A DNA stretch of 64,000 nt from Negativicutes bacterium (GCA_963665275.2 CAXXIN010000014.1:5430-69429), one strand, 5' to 3'. Shown: positions 6,235 through 62,506, counted from the stretch's first letter. Translations and numbers: made by a program. The notes: a model not told the origin generated them from the letters alone.

Positions 6235-6282
6235 TGGGCCGCTCACGATAGTGGCCTATTTTCCTTTTGTGGAGATGTGGAG

Positions 6283-6654
6283 ATGGGATTAAAATTTCTG
6301 AAGCAGATTCATTTGCGAAAGCGGTCGGTTTTTTCGCAAAGTGTATGAAGATGGCCGCTTTATTGCGAATCGTATGATGGCGGTTTCACTTCATGCCAAA
6401 CCCTGAGCAGGCCCGACGAATCGGATTTTCCGCAGGGAAAAGGCTTGGTAGTGCAGTTGTGAGAAACCGCTGTAAGCGTCGCCTTCGGGAATGCTATCGT
6501 CTTCATCAACTGGATGTACCGGCAGGAATGGATATTATTTTTGTTGCGCGCCGATCTATGGTTGGGGCTAAATGGACAGATATTGTTGCTGCATTTTTAG
6601 AAGCCTTGCGACGCAGTCGCGGAATGATCGAAAAGAACAGGTCGGGGTACATGA
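6283..6654 (+). pseudogene. rnpA: RNase P protein component, frameshifted
   Basis: Pieces in different frames: LRKRSVF / RKVYEDGRFIANRMMAVSLHAKP / EQARRIGFSAGKRLGSAVVRNRCKRRLRE. An extra t in the T-run at about 6322 and a shift near 6400. The natural stop is probably the tga overlapping the yidD ATG. Confidence 0.78.
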
Positions 6655-6858
6655 AACGTTTGATTGTTTGGATTATTATGTTCTATAGAAATGCCATTTC
6701 TCCTTGGAAAGCGCCTTGTTGCCGATTCGTGCCCGACATGCTCTGAATATGCGCTGTTGGCTATCGAAAAGTACGGTGTTTTAAAGGGCCTTTTGCTTAC
6801 GGGTAAAAGATTGCTTAAATGTCACCCTTTTCATGCAGGTGGATATGATCCTGTCTAA
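6651..6858 (+). pseudogene. yidD: Membrane protein insertion efficiency factor YidD, frameshifted
   Basis: [28 protein letters not shown] then, after a 1-nt shift at the C-run 6732-6734, [39 protein letters not shown]. Confidence 0.8.
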
Positions 6859-6894
6859 AGCGTAATCGGTATTTAGTTAAGGAGTGAAAAAAAC

Positions 6895-7550
6895 TTGTTT
6901 GATACGTTTGTTACCCATCCGATGCAACAGGCGCTCACGTTCTTCTACATGCTGACTCAAAGATGGGTTACCCAAGTTATGGAGTTGCCATCATTCTTTT
7001 GACAGTGGCGATCAAACTTGTTTTGTATCCCCTGACTGTCAAGCAGGTTAAGTCGATGAAGTCTGTGCAAGAGATTCAACCCAAAGTGAAGGCTCTGCAA
7101 GAGAAATATAAGGACAATAAAGAGAAACTGCAAAGTGAAATTGCAGCTTTATATAAAGCTCATAAAGTTAATCCGTTGGCAGGTTGCCTGCCTTTGGTCG
7201 TTCAGATGCCAATTTTGATGGGAATCTTTTTTGCCATTAAGGAGTACCATTATGAAGGACCGACGAAATTTCTGTGGCTGGATAATTTACAACAGGGAAC
7301 TTCAATCACTGATCCTAGTGATCCGTATTTCATCATTCCGCTGTTGTGCGCGCTGACGACTTTTGTTCAACAAAAGCAAACAACGACTGAGATGACTCAG
7401 CAAAACAAGACTGATGCTGATGTTTATGCCTGTTTTTATTGGCTACATTACGATTACATTTCCAGCGGACTCGGGGTATATTGGGTTGTCAGCAACCTGG
7501 TTCAAATTATACAGCAGTGGTTCATGTATCGTAAATCTACTGCGGCCTGA
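6895..7550 (+). pseudogene. yidC: Membrane insertase YidC/SpoIIIJ (short Firmicutes type), at least 3 frameshifts
   Basis: RBS aaggag then TTG at 6895. Fragments MGYPSYGVAIILLTVAIKLVLYPLT..., MLMFMPVFIGYITITFPA and GLGVYWVVSNLVQIIQQ lie in alternating frames, with shifts near 6955, 7405 and 7468. Confidence 0.8.
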
Positions 7551-13145: not shown

Positions 13146-13554
13146 GAGTACAGGTAATGTAGAATATATTTGTTTGATTTTTATTAACGGCGATTTTTGG
13201 CTTATTCTGCGTGAGTACTTATCCAGACACTTCACGTTTCATAGCCTGAACCTGTCGTTCGCTAATTTACTAGTCAATTCTTCATATTCGATTGGATCGC
13301 GGCTGTTCAGAGAATTGTCGTCGTTTCGAAGATCTGCCTCTTTCATGCTTTCTTGGGCGCACGATCCTTCTGGAAACTTCTTCCCCCCGACACCTGCACA
13401 GGTAGCCATTTATCTTGCGTCTGCCTAAATTCCTCTTGCAAATATACAGGACTGTCACCATCTAATGTTCTTCAGGGGTTCTCTGTGCAAAGACAGGGAA
13501 CCCCTGTTGTTGTTGGTTGAGTTACAAAAATATATTGACCCTTCGTGTATCTTT

Positions 13555-13610
13555 TCATGTCAGCTATTATAATTTGTTTCACATGAAACAAATTATAATA
13601 GCTGACATGA
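13555..13610. promoter_or_regulatory. 56-bp perfect palindrome with a parS-like core
   Basis: 26-nt arms tcatgtcagctattataatttgtttc / gaaacaaattataatagctgacatga with spacer acat. The core tgtttcacatgaaaca (13575-13590) has one mismatch to parS tGTTNCACGTGAAACa. Confidence 0.6.
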
Positions 13611-13779
13611 ATTATCGAGTTTTGGTTGAATGTCGGATCAGTTGTTGTTACTATAGTAATATTGAAACTGAAGATTTTCGTGATTTTCAATAATGACCAA
13701 TGACGAACGAGTAATTCGCAGAGCGGGAGTAATCTGCGGGTGCTTTGTGGAAACTAAGGGATATGGATGGGGTGAAGCT

Positions 13780-44602: not shown

Positions 44603-44767
44603 CAGTCACCAAGATGCACAAGTGCAATTCGACGACCCGACGCGCTGACGTCAAAACCAATGCAAAAAAAGATGCGGACATCGGCTTCTGCTTTGAAGCC
44701 GAATATCCGCTAAGGCATATTGATAAGATCATGGCCAGATTCGGCCTATAAGAAAGTAGGTGTAGCA

Positions 44768-46051
44768 ATGTCATCAGTTGTCGTAATGGGAACTCAGTGG
44801 GGTGACGAAGGCAAAGGGAAAATCGTCGACCATTTGGCGGAACAGGCGCAAGTCGTCGTTCGTTACCAGGGAGGAAATAACGCCGGACACACCGTCGTAG
44901 TCAAAGGAGTGGAATCCAAACTCAACCTGTTGCCCTCCGGTGTTCTGTATCCGGGAAAAACCTGCATCATCGGCAACGGAGTTGTCGTTGATCCGGCCCA
45001 CCTTCTGAAAGAAATCAACGCGATGAAAGCCAGAGGCATCAACCTGGCTGGACTTCAGATTTCCAACCGGGCTCAAGTCATTTTGCCTTACCATCGAATG
45101 ATGGATGAAGCAGACGAAGAGTCGCGGGGTGACGCAAAGATCGGTACTACGAAACGGGGCATCGGGCCTTGCTATGTTGATAAGAACAGCCGCGTCGGCA
45201 TTCGCATCGTTGACTTGATGGATTCAGAAGAATTCGCACTGCGTCTGAAGCATAATTTGATTCTCAAGAACCGAATTCTATCTGAAATCTACGGCAAACA
45301 GCCGCTGGACTATGAGTCGGTTTTAGCGGAATATCTGGGCTATGCTGATCAGCTTCGCCCCTATGTCGCTGATACAATCTTCACGTTGCACGAAGCGCTG
45401 AAGCGTGGCGAAAAAATCCTTTACGAAGGCGCTCAGGCCACGATGCTCGACCTAGACTACGGAACTTATCCATACGTTACCTCGTCACACCCAATCGCAG
45501 GTGGCGTATGCATCGGTGCGGGCGTAGGCCCCAGCACCCTTGACAAAGTGATTGGCGTTGTGAAGGCATATACTACGCGAGTAGGCGAAGGCCCGTTCGT
45601 TACGGAGCTGCATGAGGAAACCGGCAACCTGATCCGCGAACGCGGGCATGAGTATGGCACGACGACGGGTCGCCCTCGTCGTACCGGCTGGCTTGATACC
45701 GTGGTCGTTAAATATGCCTGTCAGCTTAGTTCGATCGATTGCCTGGCCATCACTCGTCTGGATATCTTAGATACACTGCCCAAACTGAAAATTTGCACGG
45801 GTTATCTGTACAAAGGCAAGCCCTTGAATGAATACCCGGCCAGCCTCAAGGTGCTCGGTGAAGTGGAACCGGTCTATGAGGACCTTCCCGGCTGGCAGGC
45901 CGATATTACCGGTATTCGTCGCTATGAAGACCTGCCTCTTAATGCCCGTCGCTACGTCGAACGTCTGAGCGAACTTTCGGGGGCACGGCTGGGGATCGTG
46001 TCTGTTGGACCTGACCGCGAGCAGACTATCGTGCTCGAATCCATGTTTTAA
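44768..46051 (+). CDS. purA: Adenylosuccinate synthetase
   Basis: MSSVVVMGTQWGDEGKGKIVD and GTTKRGIGP motifs. Confidence 0.95.
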   Translation: MSSVVVMGTQWGDEGKGKIVDHLAEQAQVVVRYQGGNNAGHTVVVKGVESKLNLLPSGVLYPGKTCIIGNGVVVDPAHLLKEINAMKARGINLAGLQISNRAQVILPYHRMMDEADEESRGDAKIGTTKRGIGPCYVDKNSRVGIRIVDLMDSEEFALRLKHNLILKNRILSEIYGKQPLDYESVLAEYLGYADQLRPYVADTIFTLHEALKRGEKILYEGAQATMLDLDYGTYPYVTSSHPIAGGVCIGAGVGPSTLDKVIGVVKAYTTRVGEGPFVTELHEETGNLIRERGHEYGTTTGRPRRTGWLDTVVVKYACQLSSIDCLAITRLDILDTLPKLKICTGYLYKGKPLNEYPASLKVLGEVEPVYEDLPGWQADITGIRRYEDLPLNARRYVERLSELSGARLGIVSVGPDREQTIVLESMF

Positions 46052-46109: not shown

Positions 46110-46185
46110 GACTCACTAGCTCAATTGGTAGAGCATCTGACTCTTAATCAGAGGGTTCCGGGTTCGAGTCCCGGGTGGGTCACCA
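46110..46185 (+). tRNA. tRNA-Lys (anticodon CUU)
   Basis: 76 nt folded by hand. Acceptor gactcac/gtgggtc (one G-U pair), anticodon stem tctga/tcaga with loop cTCTTaa, T-arm ccggg-ttcgagt-cccgg, encoded CCA. Confidence 0.93.
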
Positions 46186-46195
46186 AAACAAAATC

Positions 46196-46230
46196 AATGG
46201 CTCCGGCGATTTTTGCCGGAGCCATTTTTA
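46196..46230 (+). terminator. Intrinsic terminator after tRNA-Lys
   Basis: aatggctccggc / gccggagccatt stem followed by ttta. Confidence 0.7.
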
Positions 46231-46338
46231 TGCCCATTTCTAAAAGTCTTCTAAAAATCGTAGTTGTGTTTTGCAAGAATGTTGTTTTTTCGGGGTGTTT
46301 GACGGGGTTGAGTTGTGAAGATGCTTTCATTATGGGGC

Positions 46339-47676
46339 TTAGGCGATGATGTGGTTTTCGTGCTCGGAGATGATTTGTGATGTATGTTGATGAGTATCCT
46401 CAGGCGAATCTGATTGGGGCAGCTTGATTTTAGATCTTTTGGCGGCCAGCATTTTATTGCGATTTTTCTTTGCTTTACTGATTTTTGTGCGGAGAAATTT
46501 TGCGATCGGTGTCGGTTCAGCTACTACCGATTCGTCCGTTTTTTTCATGGGCGGCGTCAACAGGATCCGATCCATCGCATTGGCGGCTTCCAATTGCATT
46601 TCCGGCAAGACATGGCTGTATAAATCTTGCGTGATCAAGGTCGAGGAATGCCCCAGCCGCTCGGAAATCGTCTTTACCGGGACATGCTCGAGCAGCAGCA
46701 TCGTGGCGTGAGTGTGGCGAAGATCGTGAAAGCGGATGAGCGGCAGTTTCTCGCTGCGCAGAAGTTTCAGGAAGGCGTGGCTGAGAAACGCCGGATCATG
46801 TGGCGTTCCATTGTCATACGCCCAGACATAATCGAGCTTTTGATATAACGGGCCGGCCTCCAGCTTTTCGGCGGTCTGAATCGGTTTTAACGCGGTTAAC
46901 AGGGTGATGAGCGCCTCAGGGAGTCGGATCGAACGCTCAGAGCGCTGGGTTTTTACGGGTTGGGATTTCAATTGGCCGGCCACGCGGTTGAGTGAGTTGC
47001 GGACGAACATCAAGCCCCGATCCAGGGCGACATCTTGCCAGCGCAGCCCGCAGCATTCACCGCGGCGGAGACCGCAGGTAGCCGCCAGCATAATCGGCAG
47101 GTGCAAGGGGGTGTTTTGGGCGGCCAGGATCAGACTGCTCAACAATTCGGGCGTGTAGGAGGAGGAACGGAACTTTTCCGTTTTCGGCGCATCGACTGCC
47201 AAGATCGGGTTGTTCAGGATCAGGCACCATTTTACGGCGCGGTTCAAAGCGCCGCGTAACACCGCGTAGACATAATGGAGCATTGTTTTGGAGAGGGCGG
47301 GTTTTCGTTTGCGCAAGCGGCCAAGCAGATCTTGAAGATGGAGCGGACTGAGGGCTTTGAGTTCGATGCTGCCGATGTAGGGCGTGACGAAGGTCTCGAC
47401 CGTCCATTTGTAGCTTTCATAGGTCGACTCGCGAACGGAAGGCTCCACATGATTGGCCAGCCAGCGAGTTAAAAACTCTTTGACTGTGATCTTCTCCGGA
47501 TCCAGGAACTTGTCCCGTTCCTGTTCGACCAGCAAATGGGCCAAGGCTTCTTCGGCAAGGGCTTTGTCGGTGCCTGAACGAATCCAGCGGGTCTTCCATT
47601 TTCTCGTTTCGGGGTTTTGGCCAATACTCAAAACAAGATAATAAATATCCCCTTTCTTCTGAATGCTTCCCTTCAT
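46339..47676 (-). CDS. int: Tyrosine recombinase / phage-type integrase
   Basis: MKGSIQKKGDIYYLVL... (SAM-like N-domain). Catalytic region RRGECCGLRW, HDLRHTHATMLL, LGHSSTLITQDLYSHV. RBS ggagg. Confidence 0.92.
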   Translation of the reverse strand: MKGSIQKKGDIYYLVLSIGQNPETRKWKTRWIRSGTDKALAEEALAHLLVEQERDKFLDPEKITVKEFLTRWLANHVEPSVRESTYESYKWTVETFVTPYIGSIELKALSPLHLQDLLGRLRKRKPALSKTMLHYVYAVLRGALNRAVKWCLILNNPILAVDAPKTEKFRSSSYTPELLSSLILAAQNTPLHLPIMLAATCGLRRGECCGLRWQDVALDRGLMFVRNSLNRVAGQLKSQPVKTQRSERSIRLPEALITLLTALKPIQTAEKLEAGPLYQKLDYVWAYDNGTPHDPAFLSHAFLKLLRSEKLPLIRFHDLRHTHATMLLLEHVPVKTISERLGHSSTLITQDLYSHVLPEMQLEAANAMDRILLTPPMKKTDESVVAEPTPIAKFLRTKISKAKKNRNKMLAAKRSKIKLPQSDSPEDTHQHTSQIISEHENHIIA

Positions 47677-47822
47677 GTTGTGCCTCCTCTGCCGATATTT
47701 CATGACAAAAGGCCCGTCCGTCTTCACGGCGGGCCTTTCGGCACAGAACATATTTTGCTAATAGAATCGGTTTGTTGGGCGCGCCCATGCAGTTGCAGGT
47801 TAAATAGCGCTCTAGAGCGGAT

Positions 47823-49523: not shown

Positions 49524-50195
49524 ATGGAAAATATTGCAGCGATTGTTCAAAGTCTGCTGCCGGCGAAGGGCGCCGACGGATCCTGGCAAAGAGCGAATCT
49601 GCCAGTAGCGGAACCGTCCAACAGAGCACAGCTACATCCGGATAAAGTCCCGTTCATTACTTTTCCGGTATCTATCGGCTTGTTGGAAGGAAAGCACGTC
49701 GAGGCCATGGGAATCGCCGTCTGGTGCTTTTTATGGTGCATCAATAGGGTAACCTCGGATCGCACCGATCCGGACGGAGAGCGTTGGGGTCAGGTTCTCG
49801 GCGGCTGCCGGTTCAACCATCAACGGATTGCCGATGAACTCGGGATCAGCCTGCGGGCGGTCCGTTACCAGATGGATCGTCTGAGATCAGGAGGTTACCT
49901 GCGCATTACCCGTTGCCAGGACGGGCAGCAGGTGGAAGTCCGGCACAGCATCAAATGGCTGCGCAGAAAAACTCAGGGCGCGCCAAACAGCCGGCCTGAA
50001 CTGCCACCACCCGTCACAAAACTACCGGACATAGATCCTCCTGTCAGCGTCCCGGAAGTGCTGGTGAACCCGGTGGTTTCGGTGGCAGAGGAGTCTATCT
50101 CGCCAGAGCCCGATGCTGAAACCGCCAAGGTGTTTTCTCTGGCGGAAGCCTTGCGCAGGAAACAATGGGAGCGGGAGCAAGGCTTGCGGGAATAA
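49524..50195 (+). CDS. Winged-helix DNA-binding protein, putative island replication initiator/organizer
   Basis: 223 aa. IADELGISLRAVRYQMDRLRSGGYLRI is a wHTH. It sits immediately downstream of the origin-like site. No family was recognised by eye. Confidence 0.5.
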   Translation: MENIAAIVQSLLPAKGADGSWQRANLPVAEPSNRAQLHPDKVPFITFPVSIGLLEGKHVEAMGIAVWCFLWCINRVTSDRTDPDGERWGQVLGGCRFNHQRIADELGISLRAVRYQMDRLRSGGYLRITRCQDGQQVEVRHSIKWLRRKTQGAPNSRPELPPPVTKLPDIDPPVSVPEVLVNPVVSVAEESISPEPDAETAKVFSLAEALRRKQWEREQGLRE

Positions 50196-50645
50196 AACTC
50201 CCCTCCCGCCGAAAAAGCGGGAGGGGCTGGGGGTAGGTCCGAGACCCTAGCCGACCGAGGCGATTCCGACAGGGAAAACTTCCAGTGAGCTGCCGCCACC
50301 TGCCGACACGTCGGATAATAGCCCCACGTTATGTCAACCCGAAGGGCGCGCAGCGAAAGCGAGCGGTAGACGCGTAGCGGACTACTTTTGACATAACGTT
50401 CTATTATCGGATGGGCCGGCATGACTGGGCTGAATGATGGCACCCGTTCCCCCGTCCTCCGGCAGCTACCGTGGCCGATGGATCGGGCGCGGTGGCTGCT
50501 ACCCAGGCAGCAACAGACGCTAGGCAGTAACGAGGCGTGATCCGGACCGGGGCAGTATGCGCCGGGGAGGATGACGCCGACGGGATAGGGCAGGAATCTG
50601 CGGGAGGCGATGCGGTTCCCGGCGGTCTGATGCCAAGGCGGCCCG
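50196..50645. ncRNA. Candidate structured noncoding RNA (family not recognised)
   Basis: About 450 nt with no convincing ORF; one hand-counted 60-nt line was 70% G+C. Nested long-range helices (gttatgtcaa 50328-50337 / ttgacataac 50388-50397), a gcGAAAgc tetraloop, and a terminator-like hairpin at 50200-50226 that is T-flanked only on the minus strand. Confidence 0.35.
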
Positions 50646-50684
50646 ACGAACGGCAAACGGAAGCCCGCCACGTCGGTGGCGGGC
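50646..50684 (-). terminator. Intrinsic terminator of the ankyrin gene
   Basis: gcccgccac-gtcg-gtggcgggc 9-bp perfect stem, followed on the minus strand by ttccgtttgccgtt. Confidence 0.65.
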
Positions 50685-50728
50685 TGGAGGCCGGGCTAGG
50701 GACGCAAAGCGAGATGGGGACGTTTAAA

Positions 50729-52390
50729 TTATTTGGCTCCATATTGCTTCAGATATTCTATCGTTTTCTTAAACTCAGGAATATTATATTTTTTGTCACA
50801 TTCCAGCGCATAGTCGAGAGCACTACGGCGACCCTGGTCAAGGACATGCGGATTAGCGCCCATTTCCAGCATTCGTAGGATGATTTCGGGTGGGCCGCCC
50901 CAGGCCGCGTACATCAGAGGAGTTTTCCCATATTGATCTTGCACATTAATCGCTGCGCCTCTATCCAGCAGCAAGTTCATTTTTAACCTTCTGCCACCAC
51001 CGTGCTTTGCGGCCAAAATTAGGGGAGTTCCGCCCTGATTATCCCGCGCGTTAATATCTGCGCCTGCGTCAAGCAATATCAGCATTTTCGTGTTGTTATC
51101 CATAGTCGTTGATACCATCCACATCAAAGGGGTTCTTCCTTCATCATCCCGCGCATTGACTGCAGCACCCATTTCAACAAGTAATTTTGCGATATCCGGC
51201 TTATAGGCAGCGCTAGCCTGCATTAATACCGTCGTTCCTTTGTTGTTTTTCGCATGAATATCAGCACCGTGATCAATCAACATTTTTGACAAATCGGAAG
51301 TCCCGTTTTTCGCGGTAGCATGCAGCAACGGCGTGGATCCTGTTTCGTCCCTGGCGTTGATATCTGCGCCTGCCTCCATCAGATATTGAATTTTGTTCAT
51401 GCTTTCTATTTGGCTGGGCCTATGACTACTTTGATACCAACGTACTGCTTCAATAAATGCATTGTTTTTGTCCGCCGGCGAAAAACGAATCCCTTTGGAC
51501 AACAAATCTTTGACTGTTTCCAAACTCCCCCGCCCGGCCGCGTAGATCAGAGCCGTTTTCCCGCTGGCATCTTCAGCCTGGATATCGGCGCCTTGGGCAA
51601 GCAATAAATCCACGGCATCCACTTTTCCCGTTTCGGCAGCACTCATAAGTGCGATTTGACCTTGGCTGGTTTTTGAATTGACATTTGCACCGTTTTCCAA
51701 CAACAGTTTCATAGCTTCGAGATTTCCTCTGTTACTGGCTACCATCAGCAGCGTATTTTCTGGAAGGGAGATGGTTTCCACGCCAGCGAAAGGCTTCTGT
51801 CTATATATCTTTACCGTCTTTCCACCACCATCAAGGTTTTTCGCATTCACATCCGCGCCTTTGGCGATCAAGAGTCTGGCCAGATCCAGGTTGCCTTGCT
51901 CCAGCGCAATTCCGAGGGGGGCTTCCCACTGGTTGTTTCTTTCGTTGATGCCGATTCCGCCATAGATCAAGGGCTTGGCCAGGAATGGATATTCTTTGAC
52001 GGCCAGTGCCGTTGGCGTTCGGACTCCTTGGGCACCCAGCAAGCAACTGAGGATAGCGCAAGCAAGAGTGAATCCTACGAAAATTTTCGCTCGACGTTTG
52101 GCTTTCGCATCTTCGGTTAAGGACCGGTAACGGGAGAGCATGTGGCCGCTGACAGGGCAGAGGACTATAACAATAAAAACTAAACATAACACGAACCACT
52201 CTTCCAAATTCCAAGGCTCATGTTGAGCGATAAAAGCCCAGACAAAATAAGCGATAGGTAAAAGCACAAAGAATCGAACAACGGTATACCCATCGAAAAT
52301 CCGTAGATTTTTCAGCGTAGCAATCATAAAGACCAACCAGCAAACAAATACAACACTGAGAAGAGGTGCGATCTTCACTAGCAGCAGCAT
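50729..52390 (-). CDS. Membrane-anchored ankyrin-repeat protein (4 predicted TM segments plus at least 9 ANK repeats)
   Basis: Start MLLLVKIAPLL after the RBS aaaggag. Hydrophobic segments occupy the first ~150 aa. Then repeated G.TPLM.AA..G....LL..GA..N units (for example GRTPLMWMV..., GGTPLILAAKHGG, GKTPLMYAAWGG). Confidence 0.88.
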   Translation of the reverse strand: MLLLVKIAPLLSVVFVCWLVFMIATLKNLRIFDGYTVVRFFVLLPIAYFVWAFIAQHEPWNLEEWFVLCLVFIVIVLCPVSGHMLSRYRSLTEDAKAKRRAKIFVGFTLACAILSCLLGAQGVRTPTALAVKEYPFLAKPLIYGGIGINERNNQWEAPLGIALEQGNLDLARLLIAKGADVNAKNLDGGGKTVKIYRQKPFAGVETISLPENTLLMVASNRGNLEAMKLLLENGANVNSKTSQGQIALMSAAETGKVDAVDLLLAQGADIQAEDASGKTALIYAAGRGSLETVKDLLSKGIRFSPADKNNAFIEAVRWYQSSHRPSQIESMNKIQYLMEAGADINARDETGSTPLLHATAKNGTSDLSKMLIDHGADIHAKNNKGTTVLMQASAAYKPDIAKLLVEMGAAVNARDDEGRTPLMWMVSTTMDNNTKMLILLDAGADINARDNQGGTPLILAAKHGGGRRLKMNLLLDRGAAINVQDQYGKTPLMYAAWGGPPEIILRMLEMGANPHVLDQGRRSALDYALECDKKYNIPEFKKTIEYLKQYGAK

Positions 52391-52521
52391 AGCAGCTCCT
52401 TTCCAATTGTTGCTATTTTCCGCAGGGTATTTCTGGGTTCCTGCGGACAAAAAGCTTAATTATATAGGACGATTGTCCTGTTGTGGACATTGAGTTATTA
52501 GTGCGAGGTCAGAGCGGCCCG

Positions 52522-52560
52522 ACGAACGGCAAACGGAAGCCCGCCACGGATGTGACGGGC
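52522..52560 (-). terminator. Intrinsic terminator (near-copy of the one after the ankyrin gene)
   Basis: gcccgccac-ggat-gtgacgggc stem (one mismatch), followed on the minus strand by ttccgtttgccgtt. Confidence 0.6.
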
Positions 52561-52593
52561 ATTACGGATCGACGCCGGCAGCATACAGCTCGC

Positions 52594-52788
52594 TCATTGG
52601 CGGGCGATACGCAGGCGAACCTGTTGGTCGATTTCGCGGCGGGCTTCCGATAGCGAAAGATGGCCGGACTCCACGCGGGCGAATATGTGGCGGCTCCATT
52701 CCGGAACTGCGGCATTCTCCAGTCGCAAATCGGCGCGGGCCTGGCGCATGGCTTCCGCCACCGGCAGGGTTGTAATGATCTTTTTCAT
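52594..52788 (-). CDS. VbhA-like (Fic-antitoxin family) small protein
   Basis: MKKIITTLPVAEAMRQARADLRLENAAVPEWSRHIFARVESGHLSLSEARREI aligns by eye, without gaps, to Bartonella VbhA as I recall it (...SQRLEGLEPDPQVVAQMERVVVGELETSDVIKDL). LEG/LEN, G+17, L+19 and S+22 are conserved. Confidence 0.6.
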   Translation of the reverse strand: MKKIITTLPVAEAMRQARADLRLENAAVPEWSRHIFARVESGHLSLSEARREIDQQVRLRIARQ

Positions 52789-52819
52789 CGGCAACACGCC
52801 CTTTCTGGCAATAATGTGA

Positions 52820-52863
52820 TATCAAAGTAGTATCAAAGTAGTATCAAAATAGTATCAAAGTGC
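52820..52863. repeat. Four tandem 11-bp direct repeats (TATCAAARTRS)
   Basis: tatcaaagtag, tatcaaagtag, tatcaaaatag, tatcaaagtgc. They lie in the divergent spacer between the VbhA-like gene and the antirepressor gene. Confidence 0.85.
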
Positions 52864-52941
52864 TACTACTTTTATAGTATATCATGCCGCAGAGCTGCCA
52901 TGGAGGAGGGCAGTCAGACGGCGAAAAAAGGAGGCTTTCCC

Positions 52942-53790
52942 ATGCAAAAAAATCAATCACTCGAACGCGTATTCCACTTTCAAAACAAGCCGGTGCGAAC
53001 GCTGGACTTCTTTGGCTCGCTCTGGTTCGTGGCGAAAGATGTCTGCGAAGTTCTCCGAATTCGAACGAATTCCATCCGGTGCGTCCTGGATGAAGATGAG
53101 GTGCGAGCGTTCAATCCCAATGACAATAGTATTGACATTGGGCAAGAGGAAGTCGGGCATGGCGGACGCAACATGCTGGTGGTAAGCGAACCCGGACTCT
53201 ATTCTCTCGTATTGAAATCGCGCAGGCCTGAAGCGCGGCAGTTCAGGCGCTGGATTACCCACGAAGTTATTCCGGTGCTGCGGGCGGCCGGCAGCTACCA
53301 AATGCCAGCTCCTGCCGGGTCGGGTCAACTGTTGCAGTTTTCCCGGCGGGATCTGCTCAATCTGGCGGTGGAGGCGGAAACCGAATGCGAGGAGCTGCGC
53401 GGTGTCGTGGTCGACATGTTGCCCAAGGTTGAATTTTACGACCGGGTGGCGGACACGAGCGCGTCGTTTTCGCTCGGAGAAACGGCCAAGATGATGGAGA
53501 TCCCCGGTTTCGGACGCAACAACTTGATCCGGTTCCTGCGGGATGGGGCCGGAGTCCTGATGGCCGACAACGTGGCCAAGCAGAAATATATCAACCGAGG
53601 CTATTTTCATATCGTACAGAGGGACTACTGCGCGCCGGACGGTACGCCGCGCGTGAAAGCGGTGACGCGGGTCTATGAAAAAGGCGTCGATTATATCCGA
53701 CACCTTCTGGATGACGGTGAATACTTGGTTGCTGCAAGCGGTAGCGCAGACAGCAGCCATAGTAGATCCGCATCCGAAGGATGGAGGTAA
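52942..53790 (+). CDS. Phage antirepressor (Bro-N domain plus KilAC domain)
   Basis: MQKNQSLERVFHFQNKPVRTLDFFGSLWFVAKDVCEVL (Bro-N) and a C-terminal KilAC-like segment ...FYDRVADTSASFSLGETAKMM...YINRGYF. RBS aaggagg. Confidence 0.88.
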   Translation: MQKNQSLERVFHFQNKPVRTLDFFGSLWFVAKDVCEVLRIRTNSIRCVLDEDEVRAFNPNDNSIDIGQEEVGHGGRNMLVVSEPGLYSLVLKSRRPEARQFRRWITHEVIPVLRAAGSYQMPAPAGSGQLLQFSRRDLLNLAVEAETECEELRGVVVDMLPKVEFYDRVADTSASFSLGETAKMMEIPGFGRNNLIRFLRDGAGVLMADNVAKQKYINRGYFHIVQRDYCAPDGTPRVKAVTRVYEKGVDYIRHLLDDGEYLVAASGSADSSHSRSASEGWR

Positions 53791-53902
53791 GTGGTGGCAA
53801 GCGCCAGCGCAGACAGTGGTCATAGTAGATCCGCATCCGGAATGAAGTGAAGGACGAATGAGATCTGGACCGCGCGAACGCGGGCCGGTAGGGTGGAAAC
53901 GT

Positions 53903-53938
53903 AAAACAGCCGCCGCAGGAGAATGCGGCGACTGTTTT
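53903..53938 (+). terminator. Intrinsic (bidirectional-looking) terminator
   Basis: aaaacagccgccgc / gcggcgactgtttt stem flanked by A and T runs. Confidence 0.7.
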
Positions 53939-54098
53939 GAAGAAGAGGATGATACTCAGGGGCAAGCAAAGCGACCAGACAGCGCTCGCCAGTATCTACG
54001 GGTGCATATCCGTTGATACTTCATTATCTTACACCTGATGCAAGAGGAAGGACAACTTGGATTTTCCTTGGTATCGGGCAAAAAGGGAGGCATATTTT

Positions 54099-54707
54099 AT
54101 GAAAATCTGTATTGATCCGGGGCATAGCGGACCGGTAGAGCCGGGAGCTTGCGCTGGCGGCGCGACAGAGGCGGCGATTAATCTGCAGGTGGCAAAGATT
54201 CTGGGCAAGATGCTCGAGAATGCCGGGCACAAAGTAGTGTTGACGCGGGTTGATGACATCGAGGACATTACCTTGACGTGGCGCTGCGAGGTGGCGTGGA
54301 AGTTCCGGGCGGATCTTTTTATCTGTATCCACTGCAATGCTCATGAAGATAAGGAGGCGCACGGAACGGAGACCTGGTATTACGAGACCAGCGAGCGGGG
54401 GCACAATCTGGCGCGCTGCATCCAAGCGGCTATCGTCGCCAACTGCGGCACGACCGATCGGGGTGTGAAGTCTAAAGATGACTGGACCGTGCTGCAGGGT
54501 ACCACCTGTCCGGCGGTATTGGTGGAGTTGGCATTCATCACGAATGACGAGGAGCGCGCCCGGTTGACCGATCCATTTCTGCAGCGGCAGTTCGCGGTGG
54601 GAATCAGCAACGGGATCGAACAGTTCGCCAAGGGCGGCTCGCTGTTCGGCGGCGTGGCGGAGAGGCGACAAAGCTACGATATACGGGCCTTCGCGCGGAG
54701 GCGTTGA
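54099..54707 (+). CDS. N-acetylmuramoyl-L-alanine amidase (Amidase_3 family)
   Basis: MKICIDPGHSGP..., HCNAHEDKEAHGTETWY, VLVELAFITNDEE. RBS aagggagg. Confidence 0.9.
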   Translation: MKICIDPGHSGPVEPGACAGGATEAAINLQVAKILGKMLENAGHKVVLTRVDDIEDITLTWRCEVAWKFRADLFICIHCNAHEDKEAHGTETWYYETSERGHNLARCIQAAIVANCGTTDRGVKSKDDWTVLQGTTCPAVLVELAFITNDEERARLTDPFLQRQFAVGISNGIEQFAKGGSLFGGVAERRQSYDIRAFARRR

Positions 54708-56812: not shown

Positions 56813-56853
56813 GTATGATGTCATCAGATGGTCGATCATGGAGGAAATGGAAA

Positions 56854-58464
56854 ATGAATGCGAAAGCATTAGAATCTTTTGTCCAATTGTTATACATACG
56901 AAACATGGTGGATCGGGAGCAGATCTTGTTGGAAGCTGTTCGAGTCGTTCGGACTTTTCAACAGCTGCACAACCGACAAGAAACCATTTCCGACACACCG
57001 GAAGATAAAGAACTCTTGTTTGCTGAAATGCAAAGTGTTTCGGAGTCTTCCGAATTGGGACACTTTCCCGGTGATCGGGAATTTTTCTACAACCTCTTTG
57101 CGGTTGCATGTGAACTCGACCTGATAGAGTTGCTGGTCAAGTCCGGCCGAAACGACCGCACAGGAATGCTGGCGCCCGCGTATCTGGTCGAATATTTGGC
57201 CGGTGGGATTACAAAAGACACCGCCCGGGTTTTCGTGGCAGAAGCTGAAAAATTTGCCGAAGGTCTGCAAAAATTAATAGCAGAGAATCCCAAAGTGGAA
57301 TTTACATTAACGACGGAAAAGAAAATACATTATCTCCTCCTGGTAACGGCTTTTTCACAAAACCATAATGTCCGGATACTGAATCAATCGATTTATCGTG
57401 AACTGTTACATAAAGACAGCTATGATTTATTGCTCACCATTCCATCGTTTGGCAATCGTTATAACTCGGAGGAATCCAACAATAATTTTATCACTCGAGA
57501 CTCGGAATGCATCGCCGTGGAAAACCTCCTCCGCCATCTTGGCGAGCGCGGAAAACTGGCCGCAGTGTTGCCTGCCAAAGTAACCTTCGCCAGCGGTCCG
57601 GTTCAGGAGTTTAGACAATGGATCATGGCCGACTATCACCTGGAAGCCATATACTCTCTGCCAGAAGGAATCTTCCGGCCCTATGCTGGCATCAAGACGT
57701 ATTTAATGGTTTTTGACGCAAAAACGACGATAGGGGTTACAGTCGGCAAAATAATCGATGAGGACTATAGACTGCTAGTCAAACAAAAGCAATGGATTTC
57801 CGACGTAGAATTCAACGGGCACGAAGATTGGCGGACAGAAATATATCTCGCCGATGATAACGAAGCCATCCAGAAGTTTAAAACCTCCGGTCTCGAAAAA
57901 ATCAAACTCAAGGATGTGGCAGAAATCTTCCGGGGCAAGTCCGTGCTCAAAGATGATCTGCAGCCAGGAAAAATAAGAGTCCTGAATATATCCAACATGG
58001 ACGAAGGCGAACTCATCTTCGACGAAATGGACACCATCCACGAAGAAATTCGCAAGGTGAAACGGTATCAACTGGAATCTGGCGATATCGTGCTAACCTG
58101 TCGGGGGACATCAAACAAAGTCGCCGTCTTCCCGGAAACAGAGCATGTGGTCATTGCCTCGGCAAACATCATCGTGCTGCGTATCAAAGAAAAGATCGCG
58201 CCTCAATATCTGAAAATATTCCTGGATAGTCCGATCGGACAAATGATGATCAAGAGTTTTCAACGGGGAACCACGATGATGAACATCAACCCCAACGACA
58301 TCGGCGAAATGGAGATTCCGCTGCTGCCCATGGAAAGACAACAAAGTCTCGTTCGGCAGTTTCTGGCAGAACAGGAACGATATCGGCGGGAAAAAGCGGA
58401 AATTGAACAGCGATGGGAAAAAGAACGCTCGGAACTATACAATAATTTTGTAAGGGGATGCTAA
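56854..58464 (+). CDS. Degenerate N6-adenine MTase-like domain fused to a single HsdS-type target recognition domain
   Basis: 536 aa. The MTase-fold landmarks are present, but motif I reads [10 protein letters not shown] and motif IV reads TIPSFG where NPPF/Y is expected. The C-terminus is a Methylase_S-like TRD plus a coiled-coil helix. The stop is 1 nt before the hsdM ATG. Confidence 0.8.
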
Positions 58465-58465
58465 G

Positions 58466-60004
58466 ATGGCGGAGAATGCGAATGGTGCAACACTTGGCTT
58501 TGAAGAAAAACTGTGGCAGGCTGCGGACAAAATGCGCAACAATATGGATGCGGCCGAATACAAACATGTTGTATTGGGCCTACTGTTTTTGAAATACATT
58601 TCCGACGCATTCGAAGAAAAATACGAAGAGTTGAACAAGGATGCACTGTCTGATCCAGAAGACCGAGACGAATATACGGCAGTAAATATTTTCTGGGTCG
58701 CCAAAGAAGCCCGCTGGAACTTTATCAAGGAAAGTGCAAAAAGCCCGAAAATCGGTCAGATCATCGATGAAGCCATGGTGGCCATCGAGAAAGATAATTC
58801 CAATCTCAAAGGGGTACTGCCAAAAGATTATGCCCGGTCCACGCTGGACAAAACCCGGCTGGGTGAACTGATCGATATTCTTTCCTTCAATATAGGGGAT
58901 AAGGAGAGCCGGTCGCAGGATATCTTGGGCCGAGTCTACGAATACTTCCTCTCCAAATTTGCAAGCGCCGAAGGTAAAAACGGCGGTGAATTTTATACGC
59001 CGCAGTGCGTAGTAAAACTGCTGGTGGAAATGATCGAGCCGATGAAAGGGAGAATCTATGACCCCTGCTGCGGATCAGGCGGCATGTTCGTGCAAAGCGA
59101 GCGCTTCCTGAGTGCGCATAGTGGCAAGCGCGGCGATATTTCGGTATACGGGCAGGAATCCAATCCCACGACCTGGCGGCTGTGCAAGATGAATCTGGCC
59201 ATTCGAGGCATCGATGGCAAGCTCGGCGACTACAATGCCGATTCCTTCCATAATGACCTGCACAAAAGTCTGAAGGCGGACTATATCCTGGCGAATCCCC
59301 CCTTCAACATCAGCGACTGGGGCGGCGCGAAACTGACCGAGGATGTCCGCTGGAGCGGCTACGGCATACCGCCGGCCGGTAACGCAAACTACGCCTGGAT
59401 TCTGCACATGCTCTGGCATTTGGCTCCCAGCGGCATTGCTGGATTTGTCCTGGCCAACGGTTCCATGTCGACGTCAACGACGAGTGAAGGTGAAATCCGA
59501 AAACAGTTGGTGGAAAAGGACAACGTCGACTGCATCGTGACCCTGCCGGGGCAGCTGTTCTATTCGACGCAGATTCCGGTATGTCTGTGGTTTGTGACCA
59601 AGAATAAGGCGGCGAAGGGACACCGCAGCCGCAATGGCGAAATCCTGTTCATCGACGCGCGGAAACTGGGCACCATGGCGGACCGGACCCATAAGGAATT
59701 TTATGACGAGGATATTAAAAAGATTGCCGATACCTACCATTCCTGGCGCGGTGAAGAAGGGACCGGAGAGTATGCGGATGTCAAAGGTTTCTGCAAAGCA
59801 GCGAAGCTGGAAGAAGTCCGGGAACACGAATATATCCTGACGCCGGGGCGATATGTGGGGATCGAAGACGTGGAGGAAGACGCCGAGCCGTTCGAGGAGA
59901 AGATGACGCGCCTGACGGGGGAATTGGCCGAGATGTTTGCCAAGTCGCGGCATTTGGAAGGCGAGATTCGGCAGCGGCTGGGGGCGATCGGGTATGAGTT
60001 CTGA
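58466..60004 (+). CDS. hsdM: Type I restriction-modification system methyltransferase subunit
   Basis: HsdM N-terminal domain ([34 protein letters not shown]), motif [11 protein letters not shown], motif IV LANPPFN. Confidence 0.95.
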
Positions 60005-60033
60005 AAAGGAAAGATTAGTATTGGGATGTGATT

Positions 60034-61242
60034 ATGTTGAATGAAAAAAACACGGTGTGGAAAGACACGGTGCTTGGTATATTTATTTCCATTCAACGGG
60101 GTCATGATCTGCCAGAGCAAAACCGCAATAGTGGTGAAATTCCAATAATCGGATCCTTCGGAATTACTGGCTTTCATAATAAATCCATAGCTCAAGGTCC
60201 CGGAGTAACTATTGGTCGAAGTGGCGCGTCCATGGGTGTTGTGTCTTATTCCGACAAAAATTATTGGCCGCTAAATACCGTTTTATATGTCACAGATTTC
60301 CATGATAATGATCCTAAATTCGTTTATTACCGCTTAAAAACGATTGATTTTACAATATATAATTCTGGCAGTGCGCAACCATCATTAAATCGAAATTATA
60401 TATATTCGGTTCCATTATGCATTCCAAATAAAAACGAGCAACGTGCCATCGCAGCCACCCTCTCCGCCCTCGACGACAAAATCGAAATCAACAACCGCAT
60501 CAACAAAACCTTGGAAGAAATGGCCCAGGCCCTCTTCAAGCGATGGTTCGTCGATTTCGAGTTTCCGGACGAAAATGGCTTGCCGTACAAGTCCTCCGGC
60601 GGGGAGATGGAAGAGAGCGGACTGGGGCCGATTCCGAAGGGGTGGAAGGTTGAATCACTCGATAGTATCGCGGATTATTTAAATGGACTTGCTATGCAAA
60701 AATATCGACCTGAAGGCGAAGAGTTTTTACCTGTTATTAAGATTCGTGAACTCAATCAAGGGAAACCTGATGGACAAAGCGATAAAGCCAGCCCCAATAT
60801 TGATTCTAAGTACATTGTTAATGATGGTGATGTTTTATTTTCATGGTCGGGAAGCCTAGATGTGAAAATATGGTGCGGAGGTAAAGGCGGTTTAAACCAA
60901 CATTTGTTTAAAGTGACATCTGATCGATATGAAAAATGGTTTTACTATTTGTGGACCAAGCACCATCTTGAAAAATTTCGCGGAATTGCACAGGATAAAG
61001 CAACTACCATGGGACACATACAAAGAAAACACCTTAAAGAATCTTTGGTAGATGTTCCTGCGCAAGATGTTTTGGGGAAAATTAATTCGATAATGCGGCC
61101 GATTTTTGACCTTTATATCACAAGAGAAATTGAAGCAGCGACCTTGGTGGCAATAAGAGACACCCTATTACCCAAACTTATCAGTGGCGAAATCCGTATG
61201 GATAGCTCATTTGCGGAGGACATCGGTAATGGAGAAAGTTAG
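60034..61242 (+). CDS. hsdS: Type I restriction-modification system specificity subunit (two TRDs)
   Basis: Two TRDs separated by a central conserved helix (EQRAIAATLSALDDKIEINNRINKTLEEMAQALFKRWFVDFEFP), plus a distal helix (TLLPKLISGEIR). Confidence 0.93.
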   Translation: MLNEKNTVWKDTVLGIFISIQRGHDLPEQNRNSGEIPIIGSFGITGFHNKSIAQGPGVTIGRSGASMGVVSYSDKNYWPLNTVLYVTDFHDNDPKFVYYRLKTIDFTIYNSGSAQPSLNRNYIYSVPLCIPNKNEQRAIAATLSALDDKIEINNRINKTLEEMAQALFKRWFVDFEFPDENGLPYKSSGGEMEESGLGPIPKGWKVESLDSIADYLNGLAMQKYRPEGEEFLPVIKIRELNQGKPDGQSDKASPNIDSKYIVNDGDVLFSWSGSLDVKIWCGGKGGLNQHLFKVTSDRYEKWFYYLWTKHHLEKFRGIAQDKATTMGHIQRKHLKESLVDVPAQDVLGKINSIMRPIFDLYITREIEAATLVAIRDTLLPKLISGEIRMDSSFAEDIGNGES

Positions 61243-62506
61243 AATTGAATCAATTGGTGATTTCGTGGAAATATTAAGCGGTCTCCGAACACTCTTGGCG
61301 GAAGAAGGCAACGACAAAATTGCTTTCTTCCGGGGGCAAAAAAATTCCGGCTGGGAAGAGATTTATCCGAGTGTCTTTCGCGCCCCATATTTGATGGCTG
61401 AAAATGAATTATATTACAATCTGTCGATGAAATGCCCAGAAGCAATACCAGCTAATTTTTCGATTATAGATAAACTGGTGCTTATGCAGCATTATGGATT
61501 ACCCACGCGACTTCTTGATGTTACAACCAATCCTTTAGTCGCTTTATTCTTCGCTTGCCAGAAAAACACCGAACGAGTACCAGCGTCTGAGAACTGTGAA
61601 ATGAGTCATGAAGGCTGCTTTCGGGAAATCGAAACAGACGGAGAAATCCTTGTTTTACGTGATTATCGTCCTCAACAAACCGGATTTGAGAGAGCAAGCG
61701 TTATTGCTGCATTGGCAGAAATTAATTATCAGTTTACCCTGGGCGAGTTAAAAATGATCATAGATCGGCGAGGGTTAGGGACGTATTCAATATCAAGTTT
61801 GTCCGATATGTTGCAGCAAAGCTTGCCAATAAACACAAGAATGAATAACGAAAGAATTAAGAGACAATCAGGAGCGTTTATTATTTGCGGAACGCATCTG
61901 AATTTTGAAGATACTAACTCTGACGATTCTGTGGCGGTGAAGAAAGCAATTAATTTGCGGACCCGATTTGAACAAGACGCTGGGGTACGCTACGTGGTTG
62001 CGTGGGATAAGAAAGAGCAAATATTGGAAGAGCTTGATTTCATAGGAATCAATGAATCCTTCCTTTATCCGGAAATAGAGTATCAGTCCAAGTATATTAG
62101 AGAGCATCAAATAAGGAATATCCAGTTTGATAGCGGGATCGATGGCGCTGAGCGAACGAAATTAGCAGAAGAGCTAGAAGAAGTGAATTTATATGTATCG
62201 CCTGAAAACCTTGAACGTTTTGCAGAAAGAGCGAAGATAGAAATACTTCTTATATTACAAGGCGTTGAGCAGAAAGAAATAATAACAGATTATATTGGCG
62301 AGATACTAAGAAACAACTTGGATGTGGATTGGATAAATAGAGAGGCCAGCAAGGCCAAAATTGCAGTAGCGATTAAGCGCGTATTCAGGGAACACACAAC
62401 GCTCGATTTTGTTCGAGTGAAAAAACTTATAGATGACATTCTTTTAATTGTTGAAGATTGCTATCATAAATGCGCAGCTTCACAGGAGGTACCTGAAAAT
62501 GTTTGA
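61229..62506 (+). CDS. FRG domain protein with an unassigned C-terminal region of ~200 aa
   Basis: IAFFRGQKNSGWEEIYPSVFR and LVLMQHYGLPTRLLDVTTNPLVALFFA are FRG-domain landmarks. The start overlaps the hsdS end by 14 nt. Confidence 0.85.
   Translation: MEKVRIESIGDFVEILSGLRTLLAEEGNDKIAFFRGQKNSGWEEIYPSVFRAPYLMAENELYYNLSMKCPEAIPANFSIIDKLVLMQHYGLPTRLLDVTTNPLVALFFACQKNTERVPASENCEMSHEGCFREIETDGEILVLRDYRPQQTGFERASVIAALAEINYQFTLGELKMIIDRRGLGTYSISSLSDMLQQSLPINTRMNNERIKRQSGAFIICGTHLNFEDTNSDDSVAVKKAINLRTRFEQDAGVRYVVAWDKKEQILEELDFIGINESFLYPEIEYQSKYIREHQIRNIQFDSGIDGAERTKLAEELEEVNLYVSPENLERFAERAKIEILLILQGVEQKEIITDYIGEILRNNLDVDWINREASKAKIAVAIKRVFREHTTLDFVRVKKLIDDILLIVEDCYHKCAASQEVPENV

Follow-up and report, generated by a model that had tools for sequence, protein, structure and literature searches.

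The DNA considered here is a stretch of 64,000 nucleotides (nt) from a Negativicutes bacterium (GCA_963665275.2 CAXXIN010000014.1:5430-69429), which as a whole and at its full length is called the window. Its feature of interest is a gene for a membrane-anchored ankyrin-repeat protein that stands between two identical direct repeats within a putative mobile island. Each repeat forms part of a longer, hairpin-bearing block, the T-module (copies c1 and c2); a second conserved block, the P-module, precedes the gene, and the remnant of a Fic toxin gene and a small antitoxin-like gene adjoin c2. Lengths of proteins are given in amino acids (aa), and sequences related to the locus carry L numbers.

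50638-50672, no strand assigned: exact 35-nt repeat, copy 1 (exact-match search)
52514-52548, no strand assigned: exact 35-nt repeat, copy 2 (exact-match search)
50630-50709, minus strand: full-length T-module copy 1, c1 (nhmmer profile match 50707-50635, E=4.3e-18; alignment with L001, L010, L002, L004 and L008)
50729-52390, minus strand: ankyrin gene, 553 aa (ATG at 52390 after the ribosome-binding site AAAGGAG; the product under that start is present in the protein collection)
52417-52488, minus strand: P-module, a conserved block of promoter and 5′-untranslated region (5′-UTR) (profile search)
52505-52560, minus strand: T-module copy 2, c2 (profile match 52585-52511, E=9.5e-16)
52562-52597, minus strand: Fic toxin gene remnant, 11 codons (MSELYAAGVDP) and TAA (comparison with relatives)
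52594-52788, minus strand: 64-aa antitoxin-like gene, whose counterpart is the partner of a class-I Fic toxin in relatives

The ankyrin gene and its flanking repeats

The repeat, GCGGCCCGACGAACGGCAAACGGAAGCCCGCCACG, is present in exactly two copies in the window, both in the same orientation, and no further copy appears there even at three mismatches. Dinucleotide-preserving shuffles never reached two matches (0 of 100, three mismatches allowed), which confirms the identical, same-orientation pair reported in an initial annotation of this DNA. Beyond the perfect 35 nt the similarity extends to 56 nt at 86% identity (50629-50684 against 52505-52560, ungapped extension) and spans a complete GC-rich hairpin together with its tail. 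Read as minus-strand RNA, the 35 nt comprise the 3′ arm of this hairpin (GUGGCGGGC) and the tail UUCCGUUUGCCGUUCGUCGGGCCGC; the 5′ arm and loop differ between the copies, being GCCCGCCAC-CGAC in copy 1 and GCCCGUCAC-AUCC in copy 2. The initial annotation had seen in each repeat the 5′ arm and U-tract of a minus-strand terminator. A hairpin module is indeed there, but the arm is the 3′ one and the tail (UUCCGUUUGCCGUU) is only a marginal U-tract. A simple terminator rule and consensus scan flagged copy 2 as terminator-like and missed copy 1, because its tail is only marginally U-rich.

Copy c1 consists of a conserved 5′ flank (CGCGTCCCT..CCTCCA), a GC hairpin of 9-10 base pairs (bp) and the tail; on the plus strand the hairpin arms lie at 50663-50671 and 50676-50684 and the loop at 50672-50675. 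The module lies 20 nt past the ankyrin stop codon, and its RNA folds with -38.5 kcal/mol (z=-2.5). Copy c2 has kept the hairpin (plus-strand arms 52539-52547 and 52552-52560) and the tail; the conserved 5′ flank is absent and the Fic remnant stands in its place. A 20-nt stretch within the 64-aa gene (52635-52654) shows 85% complementarity to the arm-and-tail segment of either T-module (50653-50672 and 52529-52548), which may be chance in GC-rich DNA, or may reflect long-range pairing or a recombination substrate.

As described before, the repeats flank a single gene, and the 553-aa ankyrin gene shares the interval with no other credible open reading frame (ORF), transposase, recombinase or terminal inverted repeats. 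The mechanical ORF runs from 50729 to 52450; the true start is the ATG at 52390. The lower GC content that had been noted for the gene relative to its flanks is borne out (0.478 against 0.56-0.63); its GC at third codon positions (GC3) is 0.495, that of the island backbone genes 0.62-0.81, and its overall GC equals the window average (0.486). This offset recurs in all four islands compared, where GC3 lies at 0.48-0.60 in the ankyrin gene and at 0.62-0.84 in the genes for antirepressor, amidase and replication. Four wastewater metatranscriptomes contain fragments 96-99% identical to the gene, which may be read as weak evidence of its expression.

Boundary modules in related islands

Full-length homologues of the ankyrin protein are 93, 60, 53, 50 and 49% identical to it, and four of them are encoded in islands of the same design. 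The related sequences derive from wastewater, freshwater and wood-decay metagenomes; five of the loci are summarized below (ANK denotes the ankyrin gene, int the integrase and rep the replication gene).

L001: 94% nt identity to the window, same gene order
L002: ankyrin protein 60% identical; int ... rep ... / DUF5625 - ANK - UDG-like / antirepressor - amidase - DUF1659 - DUF2922 - YvrJ - type I-like methylase and specificity genes with an AAA/SMC ATPase
L004/L005: ankyrin protein 53% identical; acetyltransferase - 189 aa - ANK - four small genes - Ser/Thr kinase / antirepressor - amidase
L008: ankyrin protein 50% identical; DUF3795 - ANK - UDG-like / amidase ... AAA_13 - HsdM - HsdS - GmrSD
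L010: 94.5% nt identity, covering int to c1

In L002, L004 and L008, respectively, the ankyrin protein is 60, 53 and 50% identical to that of the window, the amidase 66, 63 and 64%, and DUF1659 66, 65 and 64%, with 58 and 53% for the antirepressor; in the same comparison the integrases reach only about 30% and the replication proteins show no homology. The divergence of the ankyrin protein thus tracks that of antirepressor, amidase and DUF1659. Judged by this co-divergence, the gene is a long-standing resident of the island's right arm (antirepressor, amidase, DUF1659, DUF2922, YvrJ) and not a newcomer. It occupies the same slot in L001, L002, L004/L005 and L008, always behind a P-module, and so does not show the sporadic presence by which morons are recognized. 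The initial annotation had named conservation of the gene among relatives as something that would tell against its proposal of a recently acquired cassette, and such conservation is largely what was found, the gene occupying this position in four other islands at 50-93% aa identity.

Across all copies, by alignment and profile search, the T-module is a block of about 75 nt with a conserved 5′ flank (CGCGTCCCU..CCUCCA), a GC hairpin of 9-11 bp and a conserved tail; an outer helix encloses the hairpin in several copies. By the profile, the window and L001 have exactly two T-modules each (c1 and c2), and L002, L004/L005, L008, L010, L011 and L013 a single one. In the window and L001 they flank the ankyrin gene on both sides; in L004 and L008 the module immediately precedes the ankyrin promoter; in L002 it comes after ANK-DUF5625, behind the DUF5625 gene; and in L011 and L013 it lies 20 nt beyond a Fic toxin gene. 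Every T-module examined lies at a cargo gene boundary of the island family. The search for other cassettes sharing the repeat, which the initial annotation had proposed, was in this way successful: T-modules also bound Fic (L011/L013) and DUF5625 (L002) cargo. Their tails vary by 2-8 nt among islands, and the boundary modules share 80-86% nt identity compared with about 50-60% aa identity for the surrounding genes.

The P-module carries a predicted sigma-70-like promoter (-35 TCCACA at 52487-52482, a 17-nt spacer and -10 TATAAT at 52464-52459) that agrees with the consensus at 10 of 12 positions, the count of promoter-like sites being equal to that expected from shuffles. GGAC/GTCC palindromes surround the -10 element. 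In the 5′-UTR a hairpin is formed by CCGCAGG (52420-52426) and CCTGCGG (52440-52446); its family form is GCAGG-N13-15-CCUGC, in which G·U changes are tolerated. One P-module precedes each island-borne ankyrin gene (five islands) and one more the DUF5625 gene of L002, which is bracketed by direct repeats of 52 nt (87%) and 22 nt (95%) that are duplicated pieces of its junctions. A degenerate P-module downstream of c1 was considered, and the profile search gave no support for it.

These shared boundary sequences make the cargo region a series of putative promoter-gene-terminator units. We consider it probable that the ankyrin gene is one such self-contained unit, with its own predicted promoter and terminator, and that the repeats around it are copies of the family's terminator rather than the scar of a recent insertion. 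As part of this reading, the T-module would be the standard terminator that ends the cargo transcription units of these integrase-bearing islands, with termination itself a prediction, and the P-module would drive the ankyrin gene. Shared T- and P-modules would presumably also serve as substrates of homologous recombination for the shuffling of cargo between islands.

Neither a core of 24 nt nor a degenerate 25-mer derived from four copies had a match in 185,579 species genomes or in IMG/VR, and in JGI metagenomes the same queries matched a single contig, that of the close relative itself. A third T-module copy is present in the source genomes (runs X1 and X2), with two mismatches in 32 nt, its own loop (CCTGA) and its own flanks, on a separate contig of 7-16 kb at full genome depth, and possibly a fourth (about 3-4 copies in the source genomes); the third copy suggests a second island of the same family in that genome.

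The arrangement is of a kind already known, namely moron-like cargo with conserved boundary modules, and it carries an uncharacterized, rare membrane-ankyrin family. Morons are autonomous accessory transcription units of phages and prophages (Cumby et al. 2012, PMC3594210), and like them the locus has a single accessory gene with its own sigma-70-like promoter and stem-loop terminator (both predicted here), a composition distinct from the backbone, a position between modules of a mosaic integrative element, and a probable benefit to the host. Unlike in morons, promoter and terminator are conserved and reused at several cargo boundaries across islands, the gene co-diverges with one island arm rather than being sporadic, and the part of the element seen has no structural phage genes.

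Mosaic temperate phages carry conserved boundary or linker sequences between their modules, as the modular-evolution model describes. There, as here, short non-coding junctions are better conserved than the genes beside them and can (here presumably) serve as homologous crossover points. The junction described here differs in being a pair of terminator and promoter that is duplicated within the locus and apparently homogenized by gene conversion.

The Fic operon, gene conversion and rival explanations

The history of c2 can be read from a neighbouring operon. The start of the Fic remnant overlaps the stop codon of the 64-aa gene (ATGA), and homologues of the 64-aa gene, 95% identical, overlap a Fic ORF (MTELYAAGVDPYCYPDSTVLRNK...) by the same 4 nt in L011, L012, L013, L014 and L016. 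The Fic gene is complete in L011 and L013 (200 aa, with the motif HPFREGNGR) and cut by the contig end in L012, L014 and L016; its product scores 165 bits against E. coli Fic and 153 bits against VbhT. Homology to the window stops in all six relatives at 52559, the edge of the c2 hairpin. In L011 the Fic gene starts across the junction ...CCGTACTGC|TACCCTG... and the end of the Fic region runs into the T-module as ...CTCTACAGC|TCGTCACC..., and the corresponding junction in L001 reads ...CCGTACTGC|CCGTCAC.... Judged from these junctions, c2 is orthologous to the T-module that follows the operon of 64-aa antitoxin and 200-aa Fic toxin in relatives, and the toxin appears to have been lost, together with the 5′ flank of the T-module, by a deletion between TAC(T/A)GC microhomologies.

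This deletion makes the 64-aa gene a candidate orphan antitoxin of a class-I Fic module. As in VbhT/VbhA and EcFicT/EcFicA (PMC3667792, PMC5033356), the small upstream gene of the relatives overlaps a Fic gene of 200 aa with HPFREGNGR, and Glu24 of the 64-aa protein, read from the sequence, lies in an RLEN context; the inhibitory glutamate of VbhA is also E24 (PMC3667792). The window differs in that the toxin is deleted and the antitoxin an orphan. The 64-aa protein has no sequence match in Pfam, NCBIfam or the PDB and no match to the VbhA/FicA profiles, and the candidate assignment follows from the position of its gene. In wastewater metagenomes the Fic-bearing version is several-fold deeper in contig depth than the ankyrin-linked, Fic-deleted one.

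The perfect identity of the two repeats appears to be secondary. Between the window and L001, c1 differs at 2 of 35 positions, and the L001 c2 tail (UUUUUUUUUGUCGUUUUCC) shows about eight differences from that of the window; in both genomes the 5′ arm and loop of the c2 hairpin are of the Fic-operon type (GUCAC), unlike those of c1. As c1 and c2 differ in hairpin and loop in both genomes, the copies appear to have existed, already diverged, before the window and L001 separated. The presence of both copies, with differing tails, in the 94%-identical L001 means that their identity in the window is best explained by gene conversion, which we infer to have run from c1 to c2 in the window lineage. 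The identity tract is bounded by the loop on one side and by GCCGC on the other. The locus would be a clean, dated example of how island cargo is built, with module boundaries, precise toxin excision that leaves an antitoxin behind, and terminator homogenization, and perfect flanking repeats should not be taken for insertion scars.

Just such a scar would result if a promoter-ankyrin-terminator cassette had recently been inserted at a single terminator, by illegitimate or site-specific recombination or through a circular intermediate, and had duplicated the 35 bp. Perfect identity around exactly one gene and the composition of that gene, unlike its flanks, are what this predicts, and RecA could in principle excise or integrate a segment across 35 bp of identity. 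However, both copies are already present in L001 with non-identical tails, c2 resembles the T-module of the Fic operon (GTCAC type), not c1, in the 5′ arm and loop of its hairpin, the ankyrin gene sits in its usual slot and co-diverges with backbone proteins that are 50-66% identical, and the interval holds no transposase, terminal inverted repeats or recombinase. The empty site that the initial annotation had suggested looking for, or a joint of c1 and c2 that skips 1,876 nt, was found in none of the contigs of two source genomes and three metagenomes. The source-genome assemblies break at the repeat, with cassette and flanks at equal depth; a raw-read run (X23) had 0 reads at the locus, and an IMG/VR search for relatives of the 223-aa, 64-aa and ankyrin proteins returned nothing useful for an empty site. 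We regard a recent insertion as highly improbable. From the initial proposal of a cassette inserted or duplicated by recombination at a terminator module, the self-contained unit with terminator modules at its bounds is retained, and the recent insertion or duplication that would have created the repeat is not. A transposon or insertion sequence with a target-site duplication of 2-14 bp was rejected as well: the interval lacks transposase and terminal inverted repeats, and the repeat, at 35-56 nt, equals a hairpin with its tail.

It is also very unlikely, in our estimate, that T-modules or the junctions of T- and P-modules are dedicated exchange sites, recognized by a recombinase like the attC sites of integrons and organized in a true cassette array. 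Unrelated cargo (Fic with its antitoxin, the ankyrin gene, DUF5625) has one and the same imperfect palindrome of about 75 nt at its bounds, with 80-86% nt identity where the surrounding genes have about 50-60% aa identity; the outer helix around the hairpin in several copies would suit such a site, and in L002 a second cassette has duplicated junction pieces on its flanks. Integron cassettes, too, are cargo ORFs each followed by an imperfect palindrome of about 60-80 nt and carry unrelated genes. Here, in contrast, there is no integron-type integrase (IntI) and no R/L core (GTTRRRY) in the T-module alignment, the cassettes have promoters of their own, conservation extends beyond structure to sequence, only one or two modules occur per island, islands that share the module have integrases of only about 30% identity, and neither the 185,579 genomes nor IMG/VR contain the module. 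Identity as an integron cassette with attC was rejected outright, the sole integrase being phage-type (SAM-like and Phage_integrase) and about 3 kb from c1, with no GTTRRRY and a conserved promoter. Hardly credible, finally, is a genome-wide element, REP-like or terminator-like, unrelated to gene boundaries, an alternative that the initial annotation had itself raised. The third and possibly fourth copies elsewhere in the source genomes would fit it, but the window has two copies in 64 kb, the 185,579 species genomes and IMG/VR have none, and every copy examined marks a cargo boundary of the island family.

Several observations weigh against the interpretation of the locus as an old cargo unit bounded by family terminators. 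The T-module tail is U-poor and only c2 satisfies the simple terminator rule; the module could instead be a 3′ stabilizer, a processing site or a DNA site. Relatives were mostly recovered via the ankyrin protein itself, which biases any statement that the gene is always present, and L011, found via the 64-aa antitoxin, has the antirepressor-amidase backbone without an ankyrin gene, although in a decayed island. Gene conversion is deduced from two lineages, and a rapid divergence of the L001 c2 tail towards a U9 terminator could explain the same differences.

The ankyrin protein and its island

The ankyrin protein consists of a conserved N-terminal domain with four transmembrane (TM) segments (residues 1-121), a conserved linker (RTPTAxAV..YPxLAKPLI) and about 11 ankyrin repeats. 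The hydrophobic segments lie at about residues 2-26, 36-55, 65-85 and 103-121. Pfam Ank_2 matches the array in nine stretches (E=4.5e-95), nine GAxxN loops can be counted, and AlphaFold2 (AF2) models about 11-12 helix pairs; the 33-residue helix-turn-helix repeats stacked in a solenoid are those of the Pfam clan Ank. The description of about four TM helices followed by at least nine repeats is thereby upheld. In the AF2 model the solenoid has a predicted local distance difference test score (pLDDT) around 90 and the four TM helices low values (45-62). Foldseek gives TM-scores of 0.75-0.78 to AnkB R13-24 and AnkR D34, and its searches of the PDB and BFVD return generic ankyrin solenoids only. 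The 4-TM domain has its own conserved motifs (TPKNxRIFDWY, HEPxNxEEW, CPV and YR..D...RR) and is very rare, with five cluster representatives among 1.84 billion proteins, four of them tied to ankyrin repeats.

By hydropathy and charge distribution, the loop ahead of TM4 carries seven Lys/Arg residues and loop 2 is acidic, and this predicts a topology with both termini outside and a periplasmic ankyrin array; homologue P0002 begins at the TM4 segment, which resembles a signal peptide. By the positive-inside rule, then, the array is predicted to face the periplasm while tethered to the inner membrane, which together with the AF2 model of four helices and a solenoid answers the call of the initial annotation for structure and topology predictions. 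A periplasm is to be expected, since the best named relatives of the purA gene in the window are Negativicutes and Veillonellaceae metagenome-assembled genomes (86-88% identity) and the host should therefore have an outer membrane.

We propose that TM4 would act as a signal anchor, so that a solenoid of about 430 aa is held at the inner membrane on its periplasmic side, where it would bind and neutralize a harmful protein that arrives in the envelope or acts on it. The retained orphan antitoxin next to the ankyrin gene would fit the same antidote-only logic. Neutralization is favoured because the gene is linked to the amidase module and co-diverges with it, because distant relatives lie in loci that resemble toxin loci, and because periplasmic ankyrin inhibitors have precedents. 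An interbacterial toxin or a peptidoglycan hydrolase is the target we tentatively prefer.

The distant relatives are 4-TM-ankyrin homologues outside islands (L009 1-12449; L017-L019), in loci with hallmarks of polymorphic toxins. In L009 the neighbours are a CdiA-like gene of the two-partner secretion/filamentous-haemagglutinin type of more than 4,400 aa and genes for WG-repeat and 3D-domain proteins; in L017-L019 the 4-TM-ankyrin genes lie between Rhs-CT-like orphan modules, and the fragments start with the end of a YD shell. The precedents are Bd3460 of Bdellovibrio (PMC4686830) and Tli, an immunity protein to a lipase of the type VI secretion system (doi 10.1101/2023.03.28.534661), which share with our case a periplasmic ankyrin solenoid (predicted here) that neutralizes an envelope-acting enzyme (proposed here) and a genomic link to peptidoglycan hydrolase or toxin loci. 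The present protein is much longer, at about 11 repeats, has a rare conserved 4-TM anchor, is encoded divergently from the amidase, and is homologous to them only in the repeat fold.

A phage entry component is the alternative target, and superinfection exclusion the corresponding, rather unlikely function: an inner-membrane protein produced from a moron active in lysogeny would use its periplasmic solenoid to capture tape-measure or ejection proteins, or to mask a receptor or channel, and phage DNA would be kept from entering. The moron-like architecture and foreign composition (PMC3594210) suit such a role, as do the membrane tether, the predicted outward-facing array and the company of type I restriction-modification and PDC-S15 genes. 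Ltp-type exclusion proteins are cell-surface-exposed lipoproteins, and Ltp/Sie-type proteins are likewise membrane-tethered, outward-facing (predicted here) products of a temperate element's accessory gene expressed in lysogeny (PMC3952083); their fold and anchor are different. The ankyrin protein, however, has no similarity to any known exclusion protein, its PHROGs matches are confined to unannotated ankyrin families, IMG/VR holds no relative, and the distant family members reside in toxin-immunity-like loci, not prophages.

Neutralization of an envelope toxin has its own difficulties. The island amidase has no signal peptide, and a constitutive periplasmic inhibitor is therefore not obviously needed. 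The polymorphic-toxin annotations are weak (the YD-shell match has E=0.004), and the periplasmic topology depends on the positive-inside rule and on a TM domain with a pLDDT of 45-62. Matches to defence families in PADLOC and NCBIfam (PDC-M72A, MzaA) stem from generic ankyrin repeats. Membership of PDC-M72/MZA was accordingly rejected, the PADLOC PDC-M72A matches being four stretches of ankyrin repeats with no partner genes adjacent, and so was identity with MzaA (35.7 bits in PADLOC, and in NCBIfam 148 bits against a cutoff of 800), which is repeat-driven.

The family is a rare one that, by prediction, places a long ankyrin solenoid in the periplasm of a two-membrane bacterium and travels with an amidase module, and were it a true inhibitor or immunity factor, the known uses of ankyrin repeats in bacterial conflict systems would be widened. 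A bolder version, which we think unlikely, is that 4-TM/ankyrin proteins found a new class of periplasmic antidotes borne by mobile elements, which capture a toxin, hydrolase or phage entry protein, and that the junctions of T- and P-modules form a recombinase-independent exchange system that swaps antidote-only cargo (orphan antitoxin, orphan immunity gene, ankyrin gene).

The surroundings are consistent with the defence or satellite island that had been suggested from the start, for integrase, tRNA-Lys, cI-like repressor, antirepressor, amidase, type I restriction-modification genes and PDC-S15 are all present. The locus is probably the cargo region of an integrative, defence-carrying island of prophage- or satellite-like character beside tRNA-Lys in a Negativicutes bacterium of uncultured type. 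The remaining features of the island are these:

46110-47751, no strand assigned: left island end, the only end seen; tRNA-Lys(CTT) 46110-46185 (plus strand) and tyrosine integrase 46339-47751 (minus strand)
50196-50470, minus strand: conserved non-coding block downstream of c1; identity of about 80% with L004 7372-7590 and L008 11956-12094
52900-53790, plus strand: Bro-N/KilAC antirepressor, divergent neighbour that co-diverges with the ankyrin gene
54099-54707, plus strand: Amidase_3, an endolysin-like N-acetylmuramoyl-L-alanine amidase, near the cargo region in all related islands

The tRNA gene is preceded by purA (44720-46051) and followed by the integrase, a cI/S24-type repressor, an HTH_17 excisionase-like gene and a DnaD-like replication protein (49524-50195); then come about 440 nt of GC-rich non-coding DNA, the ankyrin gene, the 64-aa gene, the divergent antirepressor and Amidase_3, and the right arm continues with DUF1659, DUF2922, YvrJ, type I restriction-modification genes and the PDC-S15/FRG protein. 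As far as the end of the window no virion gene appears. The 3′ end of tRNA-Lys, a second copy of which could mark attR, does not recur in the window, within which the right island end was not located. In a search of the window against Rfam the tRNA alone passed the gathering thresholds, and nothing reached E<=1 in 50100-54100.

The distal cargo (56815-62506) encodes an HsdM/HsdS-like fusion (549 aa), HsdM (512 aa), HsdS (404 aa) and an FRG-domain protein that is the PADLOC candidate PDC-S15 (E=1e-74). Related islands have other defence sets at this position, including a GmrSD-domain protein, AAA_13 and AAA_15/SMC.

Conservation of the non-coding block at 50196-50470 contrasts with an identity of only about 50% among the island proteins. 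Within the block is a long imperfect inverted repeat (GCTGGCCCATCCGATAATAGGAACGTTATGC ... GTTACATAACG..ATTATCCGACGTGCCAGC), and at its end a strong intrinsic terminator on the minus strand (50226-50200). It lacks a conserved ORF, Rfam yields nothing for it at E<=1, and it may be a non-coding RNA of the island or a replication origin. A separate repeat of 43-55 nt is present in two copies per island. In the window these are at 53734-53776 and 53797-53839, at the 3′ end of the antirepressor ORF; in other islands (L004 7090-7172 and 7235-7316; L008 11854-11934 and 12141-12222; L002 13131-13210) the repeat adjoins the conserved non-coding block downstream of the ankyrin operon, and it may represent iterons or a small mobile repeat. 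The divergent promoter region that separates the 64-aa gene from the antirepressor has three tandem 11-bp units (AAAGTAGTATC) at 52813-52856, which are probably operator sites; metagenomic variants show an 11-nt deletion, equal to one unit, or a 42-nt replacement there.

Outside the island, the window includes the chromosomal origin region (1050-7550), where a RemA-like gene, DciA, recF, an S4-domain gene, dnaN and dnaA lie on the minus strand and are followed by yidC on the plus strand. From dnaA to recF the GC content is only 30-37%, an unusual value for core replication genes, and the window is otherwise at about 49%. Finally, an AT-rich intergenic region at 13554-13611 holds a perfect 28-nt inverted repeat with a 2-nt spacer (TTCATGTCAGCTATTATAATTTGTTTCA / TGAAACAAATTATAATAGCTGACATGAA).

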